Source: Pyrinomonadaceae bacterium
GTDB taxonomy: Bacteria; Acidobacteriota; Blastocatellia; Pyrinomonadales; Pyrinomonadaceae
DNA: 64,000 nt
Assembly (NCBI GenBank): GCA_963724185.1
Contig: CAVRTN010000003.1
Span: 261,085-325,084, forward strand
Direction: 5' to 3'
Positions 37,496 through 48,000 of this stretch are shown here, one piece after another. Below the pieces are notes generated by a model that worked only from the letters and a program-made list of their open reading frames with translations, ran no database searches and was not told the origin of the DNA. Both the position numbers and the translations under genes were made by a program. How positions within the stretch are numbered: position 1 is the stretch's first letter; the number at the start of each line of letters is the position of its first letter.

Positions 37496-39085
37496 TCAGC
37501 CCACTCGACCCTTAACGAGACCTTCGTGCGCATCGAATGCTCTCATAGCGTCATCGGTGGTCGAGATGGAATTCAGATCAATGACCGCGCCGGTGTGTTG
37601 TTTCAAACGGTCGGCGGCGGCGGCGATCAAGTGGCGATGCATATCCGAGAGCGGGTGCGCGCCACATCCTTTGAAGGCTGGCGGCGGAATCGGTTTGATG
37701 TCAGGTACGTCATCGCGTGGCTTGTCTCGGGACAACACTTCACTCACGTCGTGTCGCGCCTTTGTCTCGTCTCCGTCAGATGCTCACCACGTAGCCAGCG
37801 CTCCGACGCGGTCTTAATAATAGAAGTGTGATCGAAGACTCTGCTGCAAACAGTTCCCTCCTCGATCAAAGGTGAAACCAGAATCGCGGGCACGCGAACG
37901 CCATAACGCTTGAAGTCGAATCCACTGTAGCCGGGATGACCTGGCGGAGGAAATCTGTCGTCGGGAGCAACCGCGAACGGCGGCGGCGTGGGCACGTGAT
38001 CGTAGCACCCGCCGTGCTCATCAAAAGTTATCACCAGCAACGTGCTCTTCCAGTCTGGTCCACGACGCAGCGCATCGTAGACTCTGTAAACGAAATCCTC
38101 GCCATTCAAAACATTTGTGGCCGTTCCGGTCTCGGTAACTGCGAAGGCCGGGTGCATGTCGTTTTCAGGACCATACGTGCTGCTGCACAACATGTTAGGC
38201 TCAATGAACGTGTAGCTCGGCAGTCCACCCGGGGTCGCAGCGTCGGCGAAAAACTCCGCAATGGGTGTGAAGTGACGACCCAGCGGCGCAAATTCCCATA
38301 GCCTTTCCTGGATCATCAAAGCGTTGCACAAGAGTAGCGGGCCGCTGTGATAGATCCGCCAATCGATTCCGGCCCTCGAGAGGAGGTTGTAAATTGTGTC
38401 GGTGTTGTTTAGCAGGTAGCCAATGTCCCAGGGATGCGGCCCGGTTTTCCAGCCGTTGACGACGTAGCCGGAAGAGGTTGCCGCATGGACAAACGACCGA
38501 TTAGGGAAGGTTTGAGTGGGCACGGAACTGAACCAGTGATCACAAACTGCGTAAGCGCGCGCCAGGCCATTCATCACCGGCAAGCGATCGGGCGTAAAAC
38601 AATTCATGATGATGCCCGGATCCGTCGCCATCGGACTGTTGCCGCGAAACAGACGAAGCGAGAATTCGGCTGCAGCCTTTTTTCGCCACACCCGCGGCTT
38701 CGATAGCCTCGGCATAATTGATCACGAAACCTTCCATACTCGGCGAGGTCGTAGGGTTAGGAACTGGATTCGGATTCGACTGATCGTTGTACATCTGCGC
38801 GTAGACATCGGCATAAGGCTCGTTGGGATCTGGATAGGGATCGATGTTTGAGGTTCCTTTACCGACGCAGGCTTTGTTAACTGAAACATCTCCGCCGCCA
38901 GGCCGTGGATTGCATAAGACTTTCCCAGAGACCCCGTCGAACTTCTGATCCCGCGGCACTTTATCGAATGGGGGTTTGTTGTCCGGGTCGTAGAGCCAAC
39001 CCAGAACGTTGTCAAACGATCGGTTCTCGAGCATCAGCACCACAATATGGTCGATGCGATTCAAAGCATTTTGATCAGTTGCCAT
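37496..39085 (-). pseudogene. phosphoesterase family protein (phospholipase C / AcpA-like acid phosphatase), at least 2 frameshifts
   Basis: Fragments are 38540-39085 (IDHIVVLMLENRSFDN), 37744-38715 (FIEPN...NDMHP, ITFDEHGGCYDHV) and 37496-37747 (C-terminal continuation in another frame). Confidence 0.8.
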
Positions 39086-39386
39086 GAGATTGTTCCTGAA
39101 AGTTGCTTGAGACTTCAGCCGATGGAACTGGCCCGGCGAATATTGCAGCGGTTTCGTTTACTACTTTCCGAGCCGGTAATGCAACGGACTTCGCACCGGG
39201 AGGACGACGTGTATCCTCCATTTGCTTCGCGATACAACGCATCGCACAACTTCAATCGCAGAATTCCTGTTCGCACTTCACTGCTAACGCCAGCGGACGC
39301 TCGCAGTCTCCGTTAAACGCTTAACATTGTTTGATGTGGACAGCCAGCTTGCTCGCCTTGATTCGCACCGCTTAGACTGAGCGCCG

Positions 39387-41408
39387 ATGCATTCCATTGC
39401 CGACGCCCTCACATCTTTGCGCGAACATTTCGGTTTCTCCGATTTTCGTGAAGGTCAGCGTGAAGTTGTCACCGCCATTCTCGAGGGTAAAGATGCCGTG
39501 GTTGTAATGCCTACGGGCAGCGGCAAGTCTCTCTGTTATCAGCTTCCTGCCTTGATGCTCGACGGCGCCACCGTCGTAGTTTCCCCGCTGATCGCGCTGA
39601 TGAAAGATCAGGTCGACGCGCTTCACGCGCGCGGCCTACCCGCCACGTTCATCAACAGTTCGATCGACGCGTCGGAACAGGGAAAACGGATTCATGGGCT
39701 GCGTCGCGGCGAGTTCAAGCTGGTGTATGTCGCGCCTGAACGCTTTCGCAGTGGCAGGTTTCTCGAGGCGCTCCAGTCGCTGCACATTTCTCTGTTTGCA
39801 GTTGACGAGGCCCACTGCATTTCCACCTGGGGTCACGACTTCCGTCCTGATTATCTCGCGCCTGAAGAAAGTGGTCCAGTCGCTCAATAGCGGTGACGCG
39901 CGCGCCCGCAAACTCTCGCGCTTACAGCCACCGCCACGCCCTATGTGCGTTCAGACATCATCGAACAACTTGGATTGATCGCGCACCCGAGCACTTTTGT
40001 CAGCGGCTTTGACCGACCAAACCTGACCATCGACGTGGTCCATACTGAAAAGGATCGAGAGAAGGTCGGGAGGATCAAGCGACTCGCGAAAACCACGTGA
40101 TGGCGGCTCAGGAATTATTTACGCATCTACTCGCAAAGCGGTGGAGCAAGTAACCAATCACTTAGCGCCGAGGGGCTGAGCGTGACTGCCTATCACGCCG
40201 GCCTGGGTGATGCATCGCGTGTGAAGGCGCAGAACGAATTCATGTCGGGTGCGGCCCAGATGATCGTGGCCACCAACGCATTCGGCATGGGCATCGACAA
40301 GCCGGACATCCGATTTGTTGCTCATTATCAAATGCCCGGGTCGATTGAAGCCTACTATCAGGAGATTGGCCGCGCCGGACGTGACGGCCTTCCTTCTTCA
40401 TGCGTTTTGCTTGTTCAACTACGCCGACAAAAACACGCACGACTTTTTCATCGAGGGTTCTTATCCAGGACCGGAACTGGTCAAAGAAGTTTACGCTTCG
40501 CTTACTGGCGACCGGCTTGAAGCGGATAGAACTCTCGGCGTCCGAAATAGCGAAGCGCGCCGGCGCTCGTAACGAGATGGCGGTTCAATCTGTTCTCTAC
40601 CTGCTCGAACGCGCCGGTCACATCGCCAGGAGTTCCTACGACCAACGCACTGCCCGATGAACCCCCTCCATGGGAAACCGCGGCCAGAATCAAATCAGAA
40701 GGAGCGGTGGTCTCGAAGGGATCGGGCGCGACTGCGTCTTCTGGCAAGAGTCAGCCGCGCCGCGGTCGTAGCATCATCATGTTGGACCAGGCGCCGTTGA
40801 CAGCTCTCCGCGTCGAGTCTGGTGATGTTGCTCGCCGGGCAGCGCTTGAGCGTCGAAAGCTGCGAGAGATTATCGAGTTTTGTTATACGGAGCACTGCTA
40901 TCGCGCTCATATCCTTGACTACTTCGGCGACCGTCATCATGCACGCAGGTGCGGCACGTGTGGAAATTGTGCGCCAACTTCTCCTGCACGAACTCCGTTA
41001 ATCGGTGACGAGTTAGTGTCTGCCACTGTACCGTCCAGCCGAAAGTTAAAAGGCACAAAAGCTGCATCGGTCCCGTCGCTTCGTGCACTCACTACTGCGG
41101 AACATCTACGCGTGCGAAAGATACTCGCCTGTGCCGCCCGCTTGAAGGGACGATTTGGCAAAACAATTCTGGCGAACACGCTGCGCGGCTCAGCGGCCAA
41201 GGCCATAATGCAATCCCACCTGAACGAGCTGTCGACCTATGGGATTCTGAAAGAAATGCGACTTGAGGAGTTGCTCATCCTGATTGATTCGCTGGTCGCG
41301 GCAGAGTGTCTCAAGCTGAGTGGCGGAAACTATCCAACGGTTTCCATTACTGACCTGGGGGAACGGGTAATGCGCGAGCAGGCGCAGGTAGAGTTGAGAC
41401 TAGATTAG
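39387..41408 (+). pseudogene. recQ: ATP-dependent DNA helicase RecQ, at least 4 frameshifts
   Basis: 39387-39890 carries FREGQREV, MPTGSGKSLCYQLPAL and DEAHCISTWGHDFRPDY. 40182-40520 carries ATNAFGMGIDKPDIRFV and QEIGRAGRDG. 40707-41408 carries the CGTCGNC zinc motif, the RQC domain and the C-terminal domain. Confidence 0.85.
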
Positions 41409-41766
41409 CAGGAAGAAGTCATCGTTCTGATCACGCTTTGCAGTGACTTGACCGTACCGACCTTCGTCGACCGCAACGCTCACAAGCTCCAACTATCGGC
41501 TGGTTCCTCCGCTGCTGGAACTTTTGTATTTCTCATCAACAAGGGCACTTGCGAAACGCTATTGTGTCCCGCTGGAGACTCATCTTAGACTTGCGACTCG
41601 ACAACCTCGGTGACACGTCACACTTACCTGAGTCGCCTGGAAGACTTTCATTGTCCAAACGACCTCAGCCCGGATCAGGAAGCAGAGGTTCCTTATCATC
41701 GATTCGACAACAGCGACAGCGACCGGAGAAGCCGGCACGGCTCGGCGAATTGTTTGGCGCGACCTG

Positions 41767-42387
41767 ATGGATGCTTTGGGCTGCGCGGATTCGCATGTTT
41801 ACCCAGCCGGCGTTGAACTCTTTCGCCAGGATTCCAGTCCCGGTCAGATCTATTTCGTAGAGACCGGCGTCACCAAGTTGACTCGTTACGAAGAAAATGG
41901 CGGCGAGTTTATTCTGGACATTCGGTTTCCGGGTTCGCTTCTGGGTTCGGAAGCACTTATACGTCAAAGGCCCCACTCGTTTTCCGCCGCGACAGCTACT
42001 CCCTGCCGTCTGATGCCTCTTTCAGCATCGCACTTTCTTCGTCTACTGAAGACCGAATCGATATTGGCAACGTTTCTTCAGGACAGCCTTTGCGCAGCGG
42101 TGTTGAGCCAGGCCGCTCGTATGTCCGAGATTGCCTGTTTGCCTGCTCGTCAACGTCTGGAGCAATTGCTCTGGATGCTGGCCCACGAGCGCTTTGAAGG
42201 CGGCAAGCGAGGCTTCAAGTTTCAATTACCACTCAAGCATTGGGAGGCTGCGCAGTTACTCGCAATTACTCCTACCTACCTTTCTCGTCTGTTGGGTGAA
42301 CTGGAGACGGAAGAAATAATTAGCCGGCGAGGTGGCTGGATAGTACTCCGAGAGCCGGCGAGTCTCTGGCATCGAGTTGATGAGTGA
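41767..42387 (+). CDS. Crp/Fnr family transcriptional regulator
   Basis: 206 aa with a cNMP-binding-like beta-barrel (YPAGVELFRQDSSPGQIYFVETG) and a C-terminal HTH (EAAQLLAITPTYLSRLLGELE). Confidence 0.85.
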   Translation: MDALGCADSHVYPAGVELFRQDSSPGQIYFVETGVTKLTRYEENGGEFILDIRFPGSLLGSEALIRQRPHSFSAATATPCRLMPLSASHFLRLLKTESILATFLQDSLCAAVLSQAARMSEIACLPARQRLEQLLWMLAHERFEGGKRGFKFQLPLKHWEAAQLLAITPTYLSRLLGELETEEIISRRGGWIVLREPASLWHRVDE

Positions 42388-42486
42388 GAGCCGACTATTG
42401 CGTTTCAAAGTAGTTCGATCACGGGGTCATACCAGTTGAACGACAATCTACAAGGGGAGTCTTTAAGATGCGGGAGGTTGAAATCA

Positions 42487-42750
42487 ATGACAGATGAAGT
42501 GCCCGGCACTCGGGATGACTTGGCAGTAAGGGCCGTTCTTCTCCTTGTTCCAGTCACGTTGACGGCGCGATTGCTTGAACTCTGGGCGCCGAAGCCGTTG
42601 TCATGGCCGGTGAGCGCTCTGGCTTGGATGCTCTTGATTTACTGGCTGCCTACTAGAGCGGACTTTAGCTTCCGGCGTTGGATAATCATAGTATCGGTCT
42701 CAGTACTGCTGGTCCTCATCGTCGCGATTCTGCAACCAGACTTGCTTTAA
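42487..42750 (+). CDS. hypothetical 87-aa membrane protein (about 3 TM helices)
   Basis: ATG at 42487, 8 nt after GGGAGG. The sequence is hydrophobic and Trp-rich, with no recognisable family. Confidence 0.4.
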   Translation: MTDEVPGTRDDLAVRAVLLLVPVTLTARLLELWAPKPLSWPVSALAWMLLIYWLPTRADFSFRRWIIIVSVSVLLVLIVAILQPDLL

Positions 42751-42840
42751 CGACTTGGGCTGGTCTTCACGAATCCCTTTTAGCAGCGCTTCACTTTGGC
42801 GCTCATCGACCACTGCACTCTAACTACCTGGAGGACCCCT

Positions 42841-43428
42841 ATGCAACGCACTATCGTCATATCACTGATCTGTAAACGATTCCTAATCACCCTGGCAACT
42901 CTCGCTCTTCCGCTCGTTTTAGTCACTCAGACAGAGGCGAAGGCTCTTAAGGACGCGGCGGTCGCCAAAATAGCGTTAGTCTCTCTCGCGGAAATGAAAG
43001 GAGCCAACCTCAAGAATACGAATGAAGTTAAGGCCCGGCTCCTATACCTGATGAAACACAATCCGAAAGCAGTCAAACTACTTTCTAAGGAATCTCTTTG
43101 TGCGACGCTGGCACTCGAAGAAAGAGTTGGTTTTGGGAGTTGCGTCAAGAACTGTCTGAAGGATGTCGGAATTAGTGCTTTTGCACTGATCGGGTGCGGG
43201 GTTTCGTGCGCTATGGCTTGGACTGGAGCTGCAGCGCTGCCATGCGCCGTTTGTCTTGGTGTGAGTATCACTGTCCTCAATACTTGCGCCCTCGGATGCT
43301 CGTTATATGGCCGAGAAGAGATTCTTATTGAGGAAAGTTTGACGCGCAACCAGCGCAAATCCCGCGCGCCTACGCGCTCACTGCAGGCAAAGCTCAGGCT
43401 TAAACCGGCGATTGCGCAGGCGAACTGA
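42841..43428 (+). CDS. secreted or membrane Cys-rich protein of unknown function
   Basis: ATG at 42841 after GGAGGA, with a signal-peptide-like N-terminus (…LALPLVLVTQTEAKA). There are 9 Cys within 67 residues (nt 43099-43299) in a Gly/Ala/hydrophobic context, followed by a basic tail. Confidence 0.55.
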   Translation: MQRTIVISLICKRFLITLATLALPLVLVTQTEAKALKDAAVAKIALVSLAEMKGANLKNTNEVKARLLYLMKHNPKAVKLLSKESLCATLALEERVGFGSCVKNCLKDVGISAFALIGCGVSCAMAWTGAAALPCAVCLGVSITVLNTCALGCSLYGREEILIEESLTRNQRKSRAPTRSLQAKLRLKPAIAQAN

Positions 43429-43575
43429 ACTTTCAGTCTAATGTGAGTGCTCATTATTTATTTAATGAGGACGGTGCGCGCAGTCGCGTCGGCCCAAGAG
43501 CTCGAATTTGCCCGACGTGAAAGTCGACTGCCGCGACTGCGCTCACCACGCTTTTCCTACGAAGGGGAGAAACTC

Positions 43576-45261
43576 ATGAGAATTAAGTCACTCATTGCTT
43601 TGGCGATATTAACTGGGCCTCTTCAGGTTGTGGCCCAAACAACGTCAGGCCCGCCGCCATTGACGGCGGTTATGAAGGTTACTGCTTCTGCAGAGCTGGA
43701 GGCGGTACTCGCGGAGGTGGGCAAACTGGACGATAAGCTGGCGATAGTAACTGTTAAAGCCCGAACGGCAGGTTTAATTGCGTTGTCCGACCCCATCCGA
43801 TCAGAAATTATCTTTCGTGAAGTTTGGAAATTCAGCAGAGAACAAACTGATGAGGACTTCGAGAAAGGAACAGCACTGGCCGTGATTGTGAACGAGCTGC
43901 TTCCGCGAAACCCCAAGCTCGCCAAACAGTTCTTAAGCGAAGACGCCACGCGCGGATCCAGTCAGGATCTTGAAGTTAATCGCAGGGCGAAATTGGCTTC
44001 GCGGCTGGTCGATGAAAATCCTCGGGCTGCTTCAGGAATTTTGGAGGATACATTGACCAGAGGAGTAACGCCGGCTGGATTAGCTGCGCTGTTACGACTG
44101 CGGGACAAGAATGCTCTGCTCGCAGATTTCGTTGTTGGGAAGTCGATGGAAGGACTAAGAATTCAACCGGATTTGGTGTCGTTAAGTAGCCTGCACCTGC
44201 TGTCGGTCTACCTTTTTCCCGAAGGCAACAACGTGGATCTTAGTTTATCGCTCGAGGGACTGCAGTTCCAATACTTTGCCACCAGCTACGAGGCTCTGCG
44301 GGCTTCACTGGCTAAGAGTGAAGAAAACCAGCTGAAAGAAAAGGCGTACACGAAAACCGAATTGCAGCGTCGCGGTCTGCATCAAGCGCAATTGTCGATG
44401 GTATTAGCAGCGCTGGCGCCGCGACTAGCGCCTAACCTCATCGGTGAGTTAAATGCCCTCGCGGACAAGCTTGGGGCGCAATTGCCACCCAATCTCGCAC
44501 ACTTGGCTAAACTTACTAGTTCCAGATTGGCTGGCGATAGGACTCTTCCGGAAGATCCAGATCATGCGATACCGCTGGCGATCCAGGGTGGCGACTATGA
44601 CGAGGCGACTCGCCTAATCGACGCTCTGAAAAGTGAGGAGATGAGGAAGCTCTATTCGCAACTTCTGTTAAAGACGGAGGCCAGATCCCTCTTGAGTACG
44701 GGAGACGTGGCCAAAGCTTTGACACGGATTAGGAAAGTGGAAGACGAAAATGCGCGGCTGGTGTTTTACCTCGAAGCGCTAAAAGCCGCGGAAAAGAAAA
44801 ATGATCCTTCGCTTTCCAGCGTAGTCATAAATGAAGTTCGAGGCTTCATTCCGCAGGTCGACCGGAATGGGCTGCACGTGAGAACGCTGCTGGCCTTCGC
44901 TTCTCAGCCTGCCGCCCTGGCGTCCACTGATGAAGCTCTGGGGTTTCTGAATTCAGCAGTCGGGTCGATTAATTCCCTCGCGAAGTCCACCAAGGATGAC
45001 ACGCGAGGAAAATCTGCTCTCGATCAGGCGTGGGCGGAGGTCAATGATCCGCGCAGCTTTCTGGATTCGCCGGAGTTTGCACATGCGTTCTCTACAATCG
45101 GGTTGCTTGATCTGGAGCGGACGATTATTGAAGCGAGGAAGATAGAAATTAAGTCGCTGCAACTCGTCGCGCGGCTCGAAGCGGCCGGTGAGGTCTTGCG
45201 AGCAGATGCTCGCAGGCCCAAACTGAAAACCACAACCAAAACCGTCAACGCTTCCCGCTGA
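43576..45261 (+). CDS. secreted all-alpha (HEAT/TPR-like) protein of unknown function
   Basis: The ATG at 43576 (after GAAGGGGAG) gives the signal peptide MRIKSLIALAILTGPLQVVAQ. The protein is 561 aa, Leu/Ala/Glu-rich, with no motif I recognise. The ORF track begins at 43447. Confidence 0.5.
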   Translation: MRIKSLIALAILTGPLQVVAQTTSGPPPLTAVMKVTASAELEAVLAEVGKLDDKLAIVTVKARTAGLIALSDPIRSEIIFREVWKFSREQTDEDFEKGTALAVIVNELLPRNPKLAKQFLSEDATRGSSQDLEVNRRAKLASRLVDENPRAASGILEDTLTRGVTPAGLAALLRLRDKNALLADFVVGKSMEGLRIQPDLVSLSSLHLLSVYLFPEGNNVDLSLSLEGLQFQYFATSYEALRASLAKSEENQLKEKAYTKTELQRRGLHQAQLSMVLAALAPRLAPNLIGELNALADKLGAQLPPNLAHLAKLTSSRLAGDRTLPEDPDHAIPLAIQGGDYDEATRLIDALKSEEMRKLYSQLLLKTEARSLLSTGDVAKALTRIRKVEDENARLVFYLEALKAAEKKNDPSLSSVVINEVRGFIPQVDRNGLHVRTLLAFASQPAALASTDEALGFLNSAVGSINSLAKSTKDDTRGKSALDQAWAEVNDPRSFLDSPEFAHAFSTIGLLDLERTIIEARKIEIKSLQLVARLEAAGEVLRADARRPKLKTTTKTVNASR

Positions 45262-45301
45262 TCGTGGTCCAGCTATTTCAGCGAGATGCGCATCTTGCGG
45301 C

Positions 45302-46093
45302 TCAGCGCACAACGCCCGTTAAGGGGCTGGAAGCGCTCGCATAGAGCCGCTTGGGCATCCGGCCGGCCAGGTAAGCAAGCCGGCCAGCCTGGATCGCCAG
45401 TTTCATGGCGGTTGCCATCGTTGCTGAGTCGCGCGCTTCGGCTATCGCAGTATTCATCAGCACGGCATCTGCACCCAATTCCATCGCAATTGCAGCATCA
45501 CTCGCAGTGCCGACTCCGGCATCGACAATGATAGTCGCATCGGGAAGTTGTTCGCGCATGATGGCGAGGTTGGCGGGATTCTGGATTCCCAGTCCCGAGC
45601 CTATCGGCGCCGCGAGAGGCATCACCGCAGGACAACCTGCGTCCAACAATTTCCTGGCCATGATCAAATCGTCGGTGAAGTAGGGCAAAACGACAAAGCC
45701 TTCCTTAACCAGGACACGCGCCGCTTCCAGTGTCTGCTCATTATCCGGGAACAACGTGGTTTGATCGCCGATAACTTCAAGCTTGATCAGATCTGTCTCC
45801 AGGGCTTCTCGCGCAAGGCGGGCAGTGCGAATTGCCTCCTCGGCCGTATAGCAGCCGGCAGTGTTCGGAAGAATTGCCAGTGACGGATCGAGATGGTCAA
45901 GAAATGATTCACTGCTTCGATCCAAAGGCACGCGTCTGACGGCGACAGTCACCATTTCCGCCCCCGAAGCAGCGTGCGCCGACTTCATTTCACTAAAGGT
46001 TCGATACTTTCCGGTCCCGATAATTAGCCGCGACTTAAATTCGCGCGCTCCGATTTTGAACACATCCGTTTCTGCTGCAAGTGCTGTTGACAT
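45302..46093 (-). CDS. thiG: thiazole synthase
   Basis: 263 aa containing [20 protein letters not shown] and [12 protein letters not shown], all typical of ThiG. Confidence 0.93.
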
Positions 46094-46138
46094 GATTTCG
46101 ATTATATTGCGGCGCCGGCCCGATGCCTATTGCTGACG

Positions 46139-46342
46139 TCAGCAGCCACCACCTACGAAATGCACGATCTCAATCTTGTCGTTCGAGTTGAGTATTGTGT
46201 GGGCCCAGTCTATGCGACGAATCACCGTGCCATTAACCTCGATCGCGAGACGCTCTAACTGCAAATCCAGGACGCCGATCAGATCCTGTATTGATAACGG
46301 CAGATCAAATTCTCGAAACTGACCGTTGACCTGGATTCGCAT
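46139..46342 (-). CDS. thiS: sulfur-carrier protein ThiS
   Basis: 67 aa with a ubiquitin-like fold pattern and a C-terminal ...HFVGGG(C). It lies directly upstream of thiG. Confidence 0.8.
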   Translation of the reverse strand: MRIQVNGQFREFDLPLSIQDLIGVLDLQLERLAIEVNGTVIRRIDWAHTILNSNDKIEIVHFVGGGC

Positions 46343-46355
46343 GGACTGGCAATCC

Positions 46356-46769
46356 TCAACCGGCAGGGTGAATCACGCGACGCAGCTCAGCAGTTTCGCC
46401 CTGGGCCTCTGCCCGAACAACAACCGCAGCGCGTCCGGATGAAAAGGTCGGCAGAACAATGGAAACTACGCCGACGCCATCGCGTTGAGTTTTCACAGAA
46501 TAGATTTGAGGTCGAAAAGTGGCGCCCAGGACTTTAATAGAGAGTGATGCGCCACCGACAGGCTTTTCGTCATCCCCCACTCGACGTTGCAGCAGGATCC
46601 GTATGGTTGTGCTTTGTCCGGCGACAAATTCCTCATCATCAAGAATGCTCAACTTGAGAACGTCTTCGGCTTTCGCCTTGTCCTTCTTCTTTGGCCGCGA
46701 AGGGCGACGCGAATCATAAACTGTATAAGCCTGTTCCTTCGTTGCGGAAAAAATCGGCTTTACCGGCAT
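46356..46769 (-). CDS. hypothetical protein (Ig-like C-terminal part; probably the 3' half of one gene with 46810-47250)
   Basis: The reading frame stays open upstream of its Met (…AVKTQPESEIVNRPTPPISDRPM…) into the end of the upstream ORF, consistent with one frameshift at ~46815-46850. Confidence 0.45.
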   Translation of the reverse strand: MPVKPIFSATKEQAYTVYDSRRPSRPKKKDKAKAEDVLKLSILDDEEFVAGQSTTIRILLQRRVGDDEKPVGGASLSIKVLGATFRPQIYSVKTQRDGVGVVSIVLPTFSSGRAAVVVRAEAQGETAELRRVIHPAG

Positions 46770-46809
46770 TGGCCGGTCTGAAATCGGCGGCGTCGGACGA
46801 TTGACGATC

Positions 46810-47250
46810 TCACTTTCCGGCTGCGTCTTGACCGCCGGGGTCCCAGTCGGTTGTTGGCCGAGCCGAAGAGTTCTCGATCACAAACCCCTGGGTGGCTGCA
46901 GACGGTGACGGTGGTGGCGGTTCGACCGTAGGTTCTGTCGCCTTCGGAGTTGAAATTTTGGCCCGCCCGCCCTCTTCCCGGCGAGCGCTCATTTGCTTCA
47001 GTTCCTCGATGCGTCCCGCATTGATGGCCGCGCAGATAAGACGATGTTGCCGCTTCAAACGTTCCGCGAGTGCCTGGTCGCTAAAACCATCGGCTATCAG
47101 GTCCTCATATGGAGTTCGCTTCGCGGCGAGAATTTCTCCACCGGAATAGACCAGCGAAAGTATGAGTGGCGTTTCGAGACCCTTGTCTTCTGTTTGCACG
47201 TGATAGACAACTCCATCACGCTCGATGTCAGTATTGAATCCTGTTATCAC
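46810..47250 (-). CDS. hypothetical protein with an N-terminal 'GVVYHVQTEDKG' domain and a Pro-rich linker
   Basis: An intact 146-aa ORF. I recall this N-terminal motif from uncharacterised myxobacterial and acidobacterial proteins but cannot name a family. Confidence 0.45.
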   Translation of the reverse strand: MITGFNTDIERDGVVYHVQTEDKGLETPLILSLVYSGGEILAAKRTPYEDLIADGFSDQALAERLKRQHRLICAAINAGRIEELKQMSARREEGGRAKISTPKATEPTVEPPPPSPSAATQGFVIENSSARPTTDWDPGGQDAAGK

Positions 47251-47399
47251 AATTTTTTAAATCACCGCGTGTTCGAATCGCCTCGTCGAACACCTCGCGC
47301 GACAATTGCCACGAAGGTCAACTGAATCGAAGTTAACACAGCAAATTTTGCAGGGTCAATTCACTATTTCTGAAACGTAATCGGCTTTAACAGACGTGC

Positions 47400-47428
47400 T
47401 TGACACCCCAGATCACTTGAACTAGGAT
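47400..47428 (+). promoter_or_regulatory. candidate sigma-70 promoter of the nuo operon
   Basis: TTGACA (47400-47405), 17 nt, TAGGAT (47423-47428). It lies ~90 nt upstream of nuoA. Confidence 0.4.
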
Positions 47429-47518
47429 TCGGCTTGTACAATGATTCCCAATCTAAGAATGGTTCATCAGTCCCGTCGGCGCTGATGCGCAGCAGTCTAG
47501 TTAGAGCCGGGTTTAGGA

Positions 47519-47992
47519 ATGTCATTTCGTCTCATTGACTATTTGCCAGTGCTCCTGGTTTTTGTCGTGGCCGCCGGTTTCGCCGTCGGCAATGTCTTCA
47601 TTTCGCAGTTTATCGGACAGCGAAAGCAGACGCGGACCAAGATGATGCCTTACGAATGCGGTAAGGACCCGGTGGGCACGGCGCGCGAACGTTTCTCCGT
47701 AAAATTTTATCTGATCGCGATGATCTTCATCTTGTTTGATATTGAGGTCATCTTCCTGGTTCCGTGGGCTGTGGTCTTCAAGACCCTCTCCGGTCCAGCA
47801 TATGGTTTAGGGACGCTGGTTTACGTGGAGATGATGGTGTTTGTAGTTCTTCTGCTCGCCGGTTATGTCTACGTGATCAAGAAGGGCGCGCTTGATTGGA
47901 GCGATCGTGCGCGTCGCGAGGCAGAGGCTGAAGGCCGGCTGCTGGCCGACATGGAAAAGCGGCAATTGGACATGAAGCGCACGGCTGCGTAG
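47519..47992 (+). CDS. nuoA: NADH-quinone oxidoreductase subunit A
   Basis: Three TM helices and the PYECG motif, with a charged C-terminal extension. Confidence 0.9.
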
Positions 47993-48000
47993 GAAAATTA

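Follow-up and report, generated by a model that had tools for sequence, protein, structure and literature searches.

A conserved acidobacterial gene module for an exported eight-cysteine protein and its solenoid partner, with a putative bacteriocin-like function

A block of four co-directional genes in the genome of a Pyrinomonadaceae bacterium (assembly GCA_963724185.1) encodes a single functional unit, the strict core of which is a pair of genes for two exported proteins, one of them rich in cysteine (Cys), and the other a large, all-helical protein, referred to here as Big561, or Big in its homologs. The block lies in a 64,000-nucleotide stretch of contig CAVRTN010000003.1 (positions 261,085 to 325,084 of the forward strand), which is termed the window, and to which the coordinates given below refer, except where the handle of a related locus (L001, for example) is attached. 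The core pair is preceded by the genes of a Crp/Fnr-family transcription regulator and a small membrane protein (TM3), which are accessory parts of the module (Table 1). The four genes are considered to be a unit because their arrangement recurs across dozens of loci, and because two of them are sometimes fused in a single open reading frame (ORF). The module is read here, tentatively, as a putative bacteriocin-like secreted peptide that is accompanied by a binding partner and membrane self-protection, a reading that we hold to be quite possible, if short of probable.

When a profile of the Big family was run against genomes that each represented one species, 11 loci were recovered, all of them from Pyrinomonadaceae, Blastocatellia or Acidobacteriota metagenome-assembled genomes. 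Searches by tblastn and inspection of the ORFs found the order regulator, TM3, Cys gene, Big gene and convergent thiG in 8–10 of these 11 loci, with Big identities of 39–76%, and the block adjoins the convergent thiG in nine (L001–L003, L005–L009, and L011). The thiG gene has the same relative position in the soil-metagenome loci L022, L026–L030, L033, L038, L046, L049, L054, and L055, and is 83–97% identical across all these thiG-linked loci. The proteins of the module diverge much faster than the flanking genes, as in locus L001, where the identity to the window is 76% for Big, 82% for the Cys-rich protein and 80% for TM3, compared with 97% for thiG and 100% for nuoB.

Metagenomes that were scanned with a more inclusive alignment of Big added 38 further loci, and the Cys gene was found directly upstream of Big in approximately 30 of the 30 that contain enough upstream DNA, a count that includes the divergent Cys version of L050, which was seen by eye, with none detected there by tblastn. 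The pair is also present in the distant loci L014, L017, L018, L020, and L021, in which Big is 33–44% identical. The first-pass annotation of this DNA had grouped the four genes on their layout, and this grouping is borne out by homologs that are arranged alike at dozens of loci, some with identities as low as 35–40%, rather than being scattered without synteny. In three independent sequences (P0173, P0174, and P0179), Big, a basic linker and the Cys domain are joined in a single ORF, and the physical or functional coupling of the two proteins is suggested because they are fused in some lineages and strictly adjacent elsewhere.

Two of the fusions, P0174 and P0173, have an extra C-terminal domain of approximately 200 amino acids (aa) with DRNGNGAIDNGxELFG-type motifs, calcium-binding in look, which is predicted, with low confidence, to be rich in beta structure, and which gives a sub-threshold EF-hand match. 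A precomputed annotation of P0174 with PF26745 (“SPM”) was not reproduced by the Pfam scan, and has no mention in the literature. At L010 (7578–8000), a deletion removes the C-terminus of the regulator, TM3 and the Cys gene, and Big is kept. In the metagenome contig L059 (1–6359), there are fragmented, inverted copies of Big, with one ORF that runs from the Cys domain into the N-terminus of Big, and this locus is either decayed or rearranged, or misassembled.

The block had initially been described as a lower-GC island, a description that does not hold. Its guanine plus cytosine (GC) content is 53.1%, as against 55.2% in the rest of the window, a shift of approximately 1.5 standard deviations (SD) that is marginal, given that other 4-kb windows are equally low. 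The GC content of the third codon positions (GC3) of three of the four genes is 1.5–2.1 SD below that of 40 neighbouring ORFs, and the codon-usage distance of the genes of the block is within the range of the neighbouring genes. No tRNA was found anywhere in the 64-kb window, no integrase-like ORFs were found, and the repeats between 36000 and 48500 are at chance level only, with no flanking repeats or elements of the repetitive extragenic palindrome (REP) type, so that the claim of REPs in the neighbours of the block is not confirmed. The block is indicated to be a vertically inherited acidobacterial module, rather than a foreign island, because the locus is fixed next to thiG across the bacterial family. 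The alternative of a horizontally acquired island, the unrelated genes of which are adjacent by chance, might draw on the slightly lower GC and on the GC3 values 1.5–2 SD below those of the neighbouring genes, but it is refuted by the gene order and position beside thiG, which are kept across many genomes, and by the fusion of two of the genes in some lineages, while the local codon usage and the lack of tRNAs, integrase-like ORFs and flanking repeats also argue against it, which leaves it with a negligible probability.

The Cys-rich protein consists of a signal peptide (aa 1–33), a variable, basic N-region (34–86), the Cys domain (87–156), and a cationic tail (157–195) with a net charge of +5. 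The signal peptide, as read from the sequence, is of the Sec type, without a twin-arginine (Tat) motif, and the mature protein has a net charge of +12 and an isoelectric point of 9.5, with an uncharged core. The Cys residues of the core are spaced C101-x3-C105-x13-C119-x3-C123-x11-C135-x2-C138-x10-C149-x3-C153. All eight are invariant in the family alignments, and the full pattern, C-x3-C-x(12-15)-C-x3-C-x(6-15)-C-x2-C-x10-C-x3-C, is found in 127 of the 143 family members. The C2–C3 spacing is 13 in 113 members, the C6–C7 spacing is always 10, there is no extra Cys, and it is the central C4–C5 loop that carries the variation in length, from 6 to 15 residues. Cys makes up 16% of the domain, Ala 14%, Gly 13.5%, and Val 12%; charged residues are nearly absent, and His is at 0.3%.

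An exhaustive search of 1.84 billion representatives with a hidden Markov model (HMM) recovered 135 clusters of this family at E ≤ 1e-3, and a search of this kind is needed, given that word-index homology searches under-report the family (five matches). The typical member, of approximately 184 aa, has a signal peptide, a variable N-region, the conserved domain, and a tail. A tail of 25–70 aa, with a mean net charge of +5.4 and often a QAKL-like ending, is present in 92 of the 127 full-pattern members, while 34 family members stop right at the end of the domain. In the window, the tails of both exported proteins are low-complexity and cationic, with a net charge of approximately +5: RNQRKSRAPTRSLQAKLRLKP... 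in the Cys-rich protein (43309–43425), and RADARRPKLKTTTKTVNASR in Big561 (45172–45258). Similar cationic tails recur across both families, and may be a common signal for sorting, anchoring or recognition.

The organization of the Cys-rich protein is reminiscent of that of ProC8, the halocin C8 precursor of the haloarchaea, which is the closest parallel described and contains an immunity part, HalI, and a toxin, HalC8. Both are exported precursors with a variable N-terminal part and a small, very hydrophobic, multi-disulfide C-terminal domain, and in the fusions, the large partner domain precedes the Cys domain, just as HalI precedes HalC8. Genes for an ATP-binding cassette (ABC) transporter and a regulator are nearby in both cases, as reported for the halC8 locus (bioRxiv 10.64898/2026.07.27.741052). 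The differences include the eight Cys in CxxxC/CxxC pairs, compared with 10 in the mature, 76-aa HalC8, the lack of a detectable sequence relationship, export by Sec rather than Tat, a solenoid of 560 aa as the partner, in most cases with a gene of its own, and the cationic C-terminal tail of most members.

The Cys-rich protein might even belong to the halocin C8 family, as a divergent precursor with its immunity part at the N-terminus and its toxin at the C-terminus, given the common design of signal peptide, variable N-region and small hydrophobic domain with multiple disulfides, the 34 members that end at the domain, as ProC8 does, and the presence of ABC transporter genes near the pair in the distant loci, as at the halC8 locus. 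This membership is highly improbable, however, and was rejected on the evidence of the TIGR04449 model, Pfam, and the Sec-type signal peptide, with an apparent difference in the Cys pattern. The halocin_C8_dom model TIGR04449, which is the criterion applied in the halocin C8 study (bioRxiv 10.64898/2026.07.27.741052), was negative for the window protein (E ≤ 1) and for 10 distant members (E ≤ 0.1), and neither the window protein nor the 10 family members scanned had any Pfam match, including to PF22862, the model of the HalI-like immunity domain. The C8 homologs of a survey across GTDB, moreover, are mainly from the Bacillota, with Nitrolancea hollandica and one WOR-3 member, and no Acidobacteriota (bioRxiv 10.64898/2026.07.27.741052). 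The family HMM scored −7.4 bits on a HalC8 sequence, the different Cys spacing of which was not matched by the Cys pattern of the family either, a comparison that is a lead only.

The AlphaFold 2 (AF2) model of the fusion P0174 contains three helices in the Cys region, at residues 653–664, 669–680, and 684–708 (12, 12, and 25 residues), with a predicted local distance difference test (pLDDT) score of 71–87. Four of the Cys residues lie on one face of the long helix, and the hydropathy of the domain peaks at 1.8–1.9 over 19 residues. The sequence profile of the domain had no significant match in the PDB. The domain is predicted to be a helical hairpin, in which helices 1 and 2 would be antiparallel to helix 3 and held to it by four nested disulfides, because of the symmetric spacing of the Cys, the tolerance of the middle to indels, and the alignment of four Cys along a single side of the long helix.

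Helix–loop–helix proteins with twin CX3C motifs include the small Tim chaperones. Among the antimicrobial peptides, the alpha-hairpinins of plants have the motif CX3C-Xn-CX3C on antiparallel helices, with nested disulfides that link C1 to C4 and C2 to C3 (PMC7191063). The Cys core of the window protein contains the C-X3-C-Xn-C-X3-C motif (C101–C105 and C119–C123), and the symmetry of the spacing, together with the variable length of the loop in the middle, suggests a doubled form of this principle, with four staples, while the cationic flanks recall those of many antimicrobial peptides. In the present case, however, there are eight Cys over approximately 55–70 residues, as against four over some 30–40, one of the pairs is CX2C, the core is far more hydrophobic (Ala, Gly, and Val), and the protein is bacterial and has a dedicated solenoid partner. 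The parallel is thus an analogy of motif, not homology, and the nested connectivity is predicted.

The partner, Big561, has a signal peptide of the Sec type (aa 1–20), which is followed by an invariant Gln21. Its 51 homologs, of approximately 567 aa and 39–76% identity, are practically devoid of Cys, with a large number of invariant positions occupied by Arg, Trp, Pro, and Tyr, and none of them contains a Pfam domain. The AF2 model of Big561 (pLDDT 81) has 29 helices and no strands, so that the first-pass description of the two proteins as secreted, one Cys-rich and the other helical, is upheld by the Sec-type signal peptide of each and by this model. When compared with the PDB by Foldseek, the model matched only generic solenoids of the tetratricopeptide repeat (TPR) or HEAT type, with template modelling scores (TM-scores) of 0.13–0.23. 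No TPR model of Pfam reached its threshold on Big561, and the sequence profile of the Big family had no significant match in the PDB. Big561 is predicted from the model to be an all-alpha solenoid, which denotes a fold class, not a family. Its body has a net charge of −6, compared with +5 in the last 30 residues, a cationic tail that resembles that of the Cys-rich protein.

The Foldseek neighbours of Big561 include, at these low TM-scores, LbcA and a flagellar periplasmic scaffold. LbcA is a periplasmic TPR-like scaffold and the partner of the CtpA protease, and the exported, all-alpha Big561 resembles it in having neighbours of the TPR/HEAT type, but differs in its TM-scores, in the lack of a TPR model at threshold, and in having no protease gene linked to it in the window. 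Locus L014 contains a second solenoid of 572 aa (178–1896), a remote paralog of Big with approximately 27% identity over the C-terminal half, which indicates that the solenoid family has diversified within loci. The Cys-rich proteins and the Big proteins define two new protein families.

The hydropathy profile of TM3 has two strongly hydrophobic outer segments and a weaker one in the middle, so that the notion of a micro-protein with three transmembrane (TM) segments stands with regard to its small size and hydrophobicity, and to the outer two segments, but is less secure for the middle one. No match was found in Pfam or NCBIfam. The protein is conserved in loci L001–L007 and L011, and there is an 86-aa homolog in the distant locus L017 (41% identity, E = 1e-11). 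Overall, TM3 was detectable in approximately 60% of the related loci and undetected in approximately 40%, including L009, L023, L046, L049, and others. In three of these, the DNA that separates the regulator from the Cys gene could not accommodate TM3 (L009 7223–7350, L023 1213–1339, and L046 6082–6238). Because it is undetected in this proportion of the loci, TM3 cannot be an obligatory immunity factor. The possibility that it is a remnant of the permease-like protein of the distant loci was discarded, given an hhalign probability of 0.4%.

The regulator is assigned to the Crp/Fnr family on the basis of its cNMP-binding domain (PF00027; E = 4.5e-16, 59 bits with a cut-off of 27.5) and Crp-type helix–turn–helix (HTH) domain (PF13545; E = 2.2e-10, 40.8 bits with a cut-off of 27). 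It matches none of the equivalogs of NCBIfam (CRP, FNR, NtcA, FixK, and others), with a best score of 46.5 bits against cut-offs of 245–300, and the N-terminal Cys cluster of the FNR type is absent, with a single Cys in the first 30 residues. The regulator is the only one of the four proteins with a recognisable family, as had been proposed, given that the other three match no model of Pfam, NCBIfam or PADLOC, and PADLOC had zero matches for all four. Orthologs of the regulator occupy the same position in most of the Pyrinomonadaceae-type loci, and this adjacency suggests that the Crp/Fnr protein may control the module.

The leader of the regulator gene contains a block, at approximately 41616–41705, that differs very little from its counterpart in L001 and is for the most part retained in L011, the two closest relatives, compared with an identity of approximately 86% in the coding DNA nearby. 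The alignment with these two loci has 52 consecutive identical bases (41653–41704), and the motifs of the leader occur in three loci only, those of the window, L001, and L011. The leader showed, in any frame, no bias in the third codon position of the kind expected of a small ORF, its predicted RNA fold was no better than that of shuffled sequences (z = −0.36), and it had no match in Rfam. A search of eight loci for canonical boxes of the CRP (TGTGA-N6-TCACA) and FNR (TTGAT-N4-ATCAA) types revealed none that is conserved, and the scan for promoters and terminators produced chance-level results. The block at 41616–41705 is a possible operator or promoter region. There is also a palindrome, GTGACACGTCAC, in the leader, at 41610–41621.

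The regulator and the Cys residues bear on a further interpretation, that of a redox or metal module, in which Cys-lined helices in or on the inner membrane would bind a metal or cluster or relay thiol–disulfide equivalents, with the solenoid as a periplasmic scaffold and the Crp/Fnr-type regulator as the sensor of a redox-related signal. The eight invariant Cys, paired as CxxxC or CxxC and all turned to the same side of hydrophobic helices, would suit this role, as would hydropathy peaks high enough to cross a membrane, a last helix that is followed by a basic tail, and the inclusion of redox sensors in the family of the regulator. The regulator itself, however, has neither the FNR-type Cys cluster nor a match to a redox equivalog, helices 1 and 2 are predicted to be approximately 12 residues long, which is too short to span a membrane, and these helices contain polar residues in several homologs (as in L006). 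A single TM pass would place the extra C-terminal domain of the fusions in the cytoplasm, which seems unlikely if this domain is extracytoplasmic and binds calcium. Given, in addition, the 34 family members that have no tail after the domain, and the lack of a conserved histidine or other classical metal ligands, this interpretation is considered to be improbable.

Several of the more distant versions of the module, found in the contigs of diverse Cys-domain representatives, contain ABC transporter genes, by contrast with that of the window. In L014, L018, and L020, the gene order is Cys, a polytopic protein of 250–290 aa, Big (33–36% identical to that of the window), and an ABC ATPase, while in L048, the order is Cys, Big, polytopic protein, and ATPase. 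Locus L050 has the polytopic protein, Big, and ATPase, with the divergent Cys ORF upstream. Both L017 and L020 have an additional trio upstream, composed of an ABC-2 permease, a TPR protein, and an ATPase. The Cys gene and Big are found beside a response regulator in L021, and upstream of the fusion in L012 there are genes for an AraC-type HTH protein and a polytopic protein. The polytopic proteins are mutually homologous, and one of the five has a sub-threshold match to ABC2_membrane_4 (23.1 bits, compared with a cut-off of 27); they are described as permease-like on this one match and their adjacency to the pair.

Locus L019 (6924–8963) contains a stand-alone version of the Cys domain in a distant protein of 257 aa (P0177), without Big, which is followed by a 53-aa ORF with two TM segments, and preceded by a divergent S8 protease gene. 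The organism is spore-forming, as it encodes SspP, and probably belongs to the Firmicutes. This layout, without a solenoid, is analogous to that of a classic bacteriocin locus.

In the bacteriocin-like reading, the Cys-rich protein would be a precursor of approximately 190 aa, exported by Sec, whose domain of some 70 aa would be a hydrophobic helical hairpin with four disulfides and cationic flanks. Once exported and oxidised, this domain would be a membrane-active peptide of the bacteriocin-like or antimicrobial kind. The solenoid, of approximately 560 aa, would bind the Cys domain as a carrier, a pro-domain-like chaperone or a neutraliser, as HalI does in the halocin C8 precursor, and the inner membrane of the producer would be shielded by the 87-aa TM3 in the window, and by the ABC-type ATPase and permease in other lineages. 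The Crp/Fnr regulator would turn the genes on upon a small-molecule signal.

This reading is supported by the variety of the local regulators, the rapid divergence of the proteins, and the optional nature of the membrane proteins or ABC transporters. The likeness to toxin or bacteriocin-plus-immunity loci that had been suggested at first finds circumstantial support in the cationic, Cys-rich mini-domain, the interleaved ABC genes, and the copy in L019, and it is plausible rather than proven. In its set of genes, which comprises a regulator, TM3 and a hydrophobic peptide for export, the module resembles bacteriocin and lantibiotic loci that have small membrane immunity proteins and ABC-2 immunity transporters of the LanFEG/BcrAB type. 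In other lineages, genes for an ABC ATPase and a permease-like protein are interspersed with the structural gene, and in L019, a two-TM ORF comes after the stand-alone homolog. It differs from them in the lack of a double-glycine leader, a C39 peptidase exporter and a modification enzyme, in its export by Sec, in a membrane protein that is optional, and in a locus that is chromosomally fixed and vertically inherited.

A number of points weigh against a bacteriocin-like role. No component matches any model of a bacteriocin, immunity protein or toxin in Pfam, NCBIfam or PADLOC, and the search for CRP and FNR boxes in the eight loci found no operator for the regulator. The fixed chromosomal position across the whole family is unusual for a bacteriocin locus, and a third helix that is long, hydrophobic and succeeded by a basic tail would also be in keeping with a membrane anchor that follows the positive-inside rule. 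The binding of the Cys domain by Big is suggested by adjacency and fusion. As TM3 is optional, and there is no ABC transporter in the window, self-protection would be unaccounted for in many genomes, unless this is the role of Big.

Some of these features would be expected of a module for envelope trafficking or structure, in which the Cys-rich protein would be a component of the surface or outer membrane, such as a hydrophobin-like or coat-like layer, and the solenoid its periplasmic chaperone or carrier, while the ABC transporter of the other lineages would take the Cys-rich protein out of the inner membrane, as Lol or Lpt systems do with their cargo, and the cationic C-terminal tails would fix both proteins to anionic envelope polymers. 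A single, vertically inherited locus beside housekeeping genes is consistent with this alternative, as are an obligate Big with optional putative immunity parts, the similar low-complexity tails (approximately +5) of Big and the Cys-rich protein, the interleaving of ABC genes with the pair, and the presence of periplasmic TPR scaffolds (LbcA and flagellar) among the Foldseek neighbours of Big, albeit with low TM-scores. Even so, the proteins resemble none of the carriers or surface proteins that are known, the module is dispensable, having been lost or decayed in some genomes (as in the L010 deletion), and the stand-alone copy in L019 has no carrier. The rapid evolution of the Cys N-region and Big also fits conflict proteins better, and an envelope module is considered to be unlikely, though not remotely so.

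Irrespective of its role, the pair may represent a previously unrecognised, mainly acidobacterial two-protein system, composed of a hairpin of a new fold family and a dedicated solenoid, sometimes coupled to ABC genes, and unrelated to the described bacteriocin, toxin, chaperone or envelope systems, a proposal for which and against which the scales are, in our estimation, evenly balanced.

The Acidobacteria are among the most abundant bacteria of the soil, and little is known of how they compete or build their envelopes; to our knowledge, there are almost no characterised antagonism factors from the phylum Acidobacteriota. The module is conserved across the Pyrinomonadaceae and recurs in more distant loci, and neither Pfam nor NCBIfam annotates the 135 clusters of the Cys domain. 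An antimicrobial hairpin would represent a new class of antimicrobial protein, with a disulfide-stapled scaffold that is probably very stable and is made ribosomally without modification enzymes, and its partner or neutraliser would already be at hand. Were the hairpin instead a component of the envelope, the two proteins would form a new carrier-and-cargo system. The natural fusions and the strict pairing of the genes provide clear hypotheses that would be cheap to test, and the alignments could be used to define the two families formally.

Table 1. Features of the module and its flanks in the window, and the fusion sequences found in related loci.
Feature	Location	Strand	Remarks
Crp/Fnr regulator gene	41767–42387	+	206 aa
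Small membrane protein TM3	42487–42750	+	87 aa from ATG; ORF opens at TTG 42436
Exported Cys-rich protein	42841–43428	+	195 aa
Eight-cysteine core of Cys domain	43141–43299	+	C101 to C153
Exported, all-helical (predicted) Big561	43576–45261	+	561 aa
Non-coding leader of regulator gene	41409–41766	+	358 nt
Upstream flank recQ, three ORFs	39387–41408	+	Outside module
Downstream flank thiG, convergent	45302–46093	-	Chromosomal anchor of module, conserved
P0174	L012 2372–5110		Fusion, 912 aa
P0173			Fusion, 699 aa, truncated
P0179			Fusion, fragment

The ORF listing and direct reading of the DNA place the four intact, co-directional ORFs of the block between a recQ remnant and the convergent thiG. 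The four ORFs are real, but the start originally assigned to the block, at 41409, takes in the leader, which is non-coding. The intergenic spacers, of 99, 90, and 147 nucleotides (nt), are not notably short, contrary to the original description, and a GGAGG-type Shine–Dalgarno sequence precedes TM3, the Cys gene and Big561, but not the regulator, so that only three of the four genes have the site that had been attributed to each of them.

The block has no frameshift, as had been observed, unlike the split recQ and phospholipase C genes nearby. When compared with the intact, 677-aa ortholog of L001, recQ has seven frame-breaking indels of 1 nt and one of 2 nt, plus longer gaps, and the indels are mostly away from homopolymers. 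The phospholipase C gene, further upstream (37744–39085), is split into two overlapping ORFs. These breaks look like either real pseudogenes or a locally error-rich assembly, next to a 3.5-kb module that is free of frameshifts. The upstream neighbour of the module varies among lineages (recQ, phospholipase C, and others).

Beyond thiG, the window continues with thiS, two conserved ORFs, and nuoA/nuoB, as do most of the 11 genome loci wherever the contig reaches that far. An Rfam scan of 39000–48000 at E ≤ 1 had no match, and the surroundings of thiS and thiG (46094–47518) yielded neither a thiamine pyrophosphate (TPP) riboswitch nor any other Rfam family at the same threshold. The two conserved ORFs (46356–46769 and 46810–47250), which have no assigned function, are found between thiS and nuoA in all the related loci.

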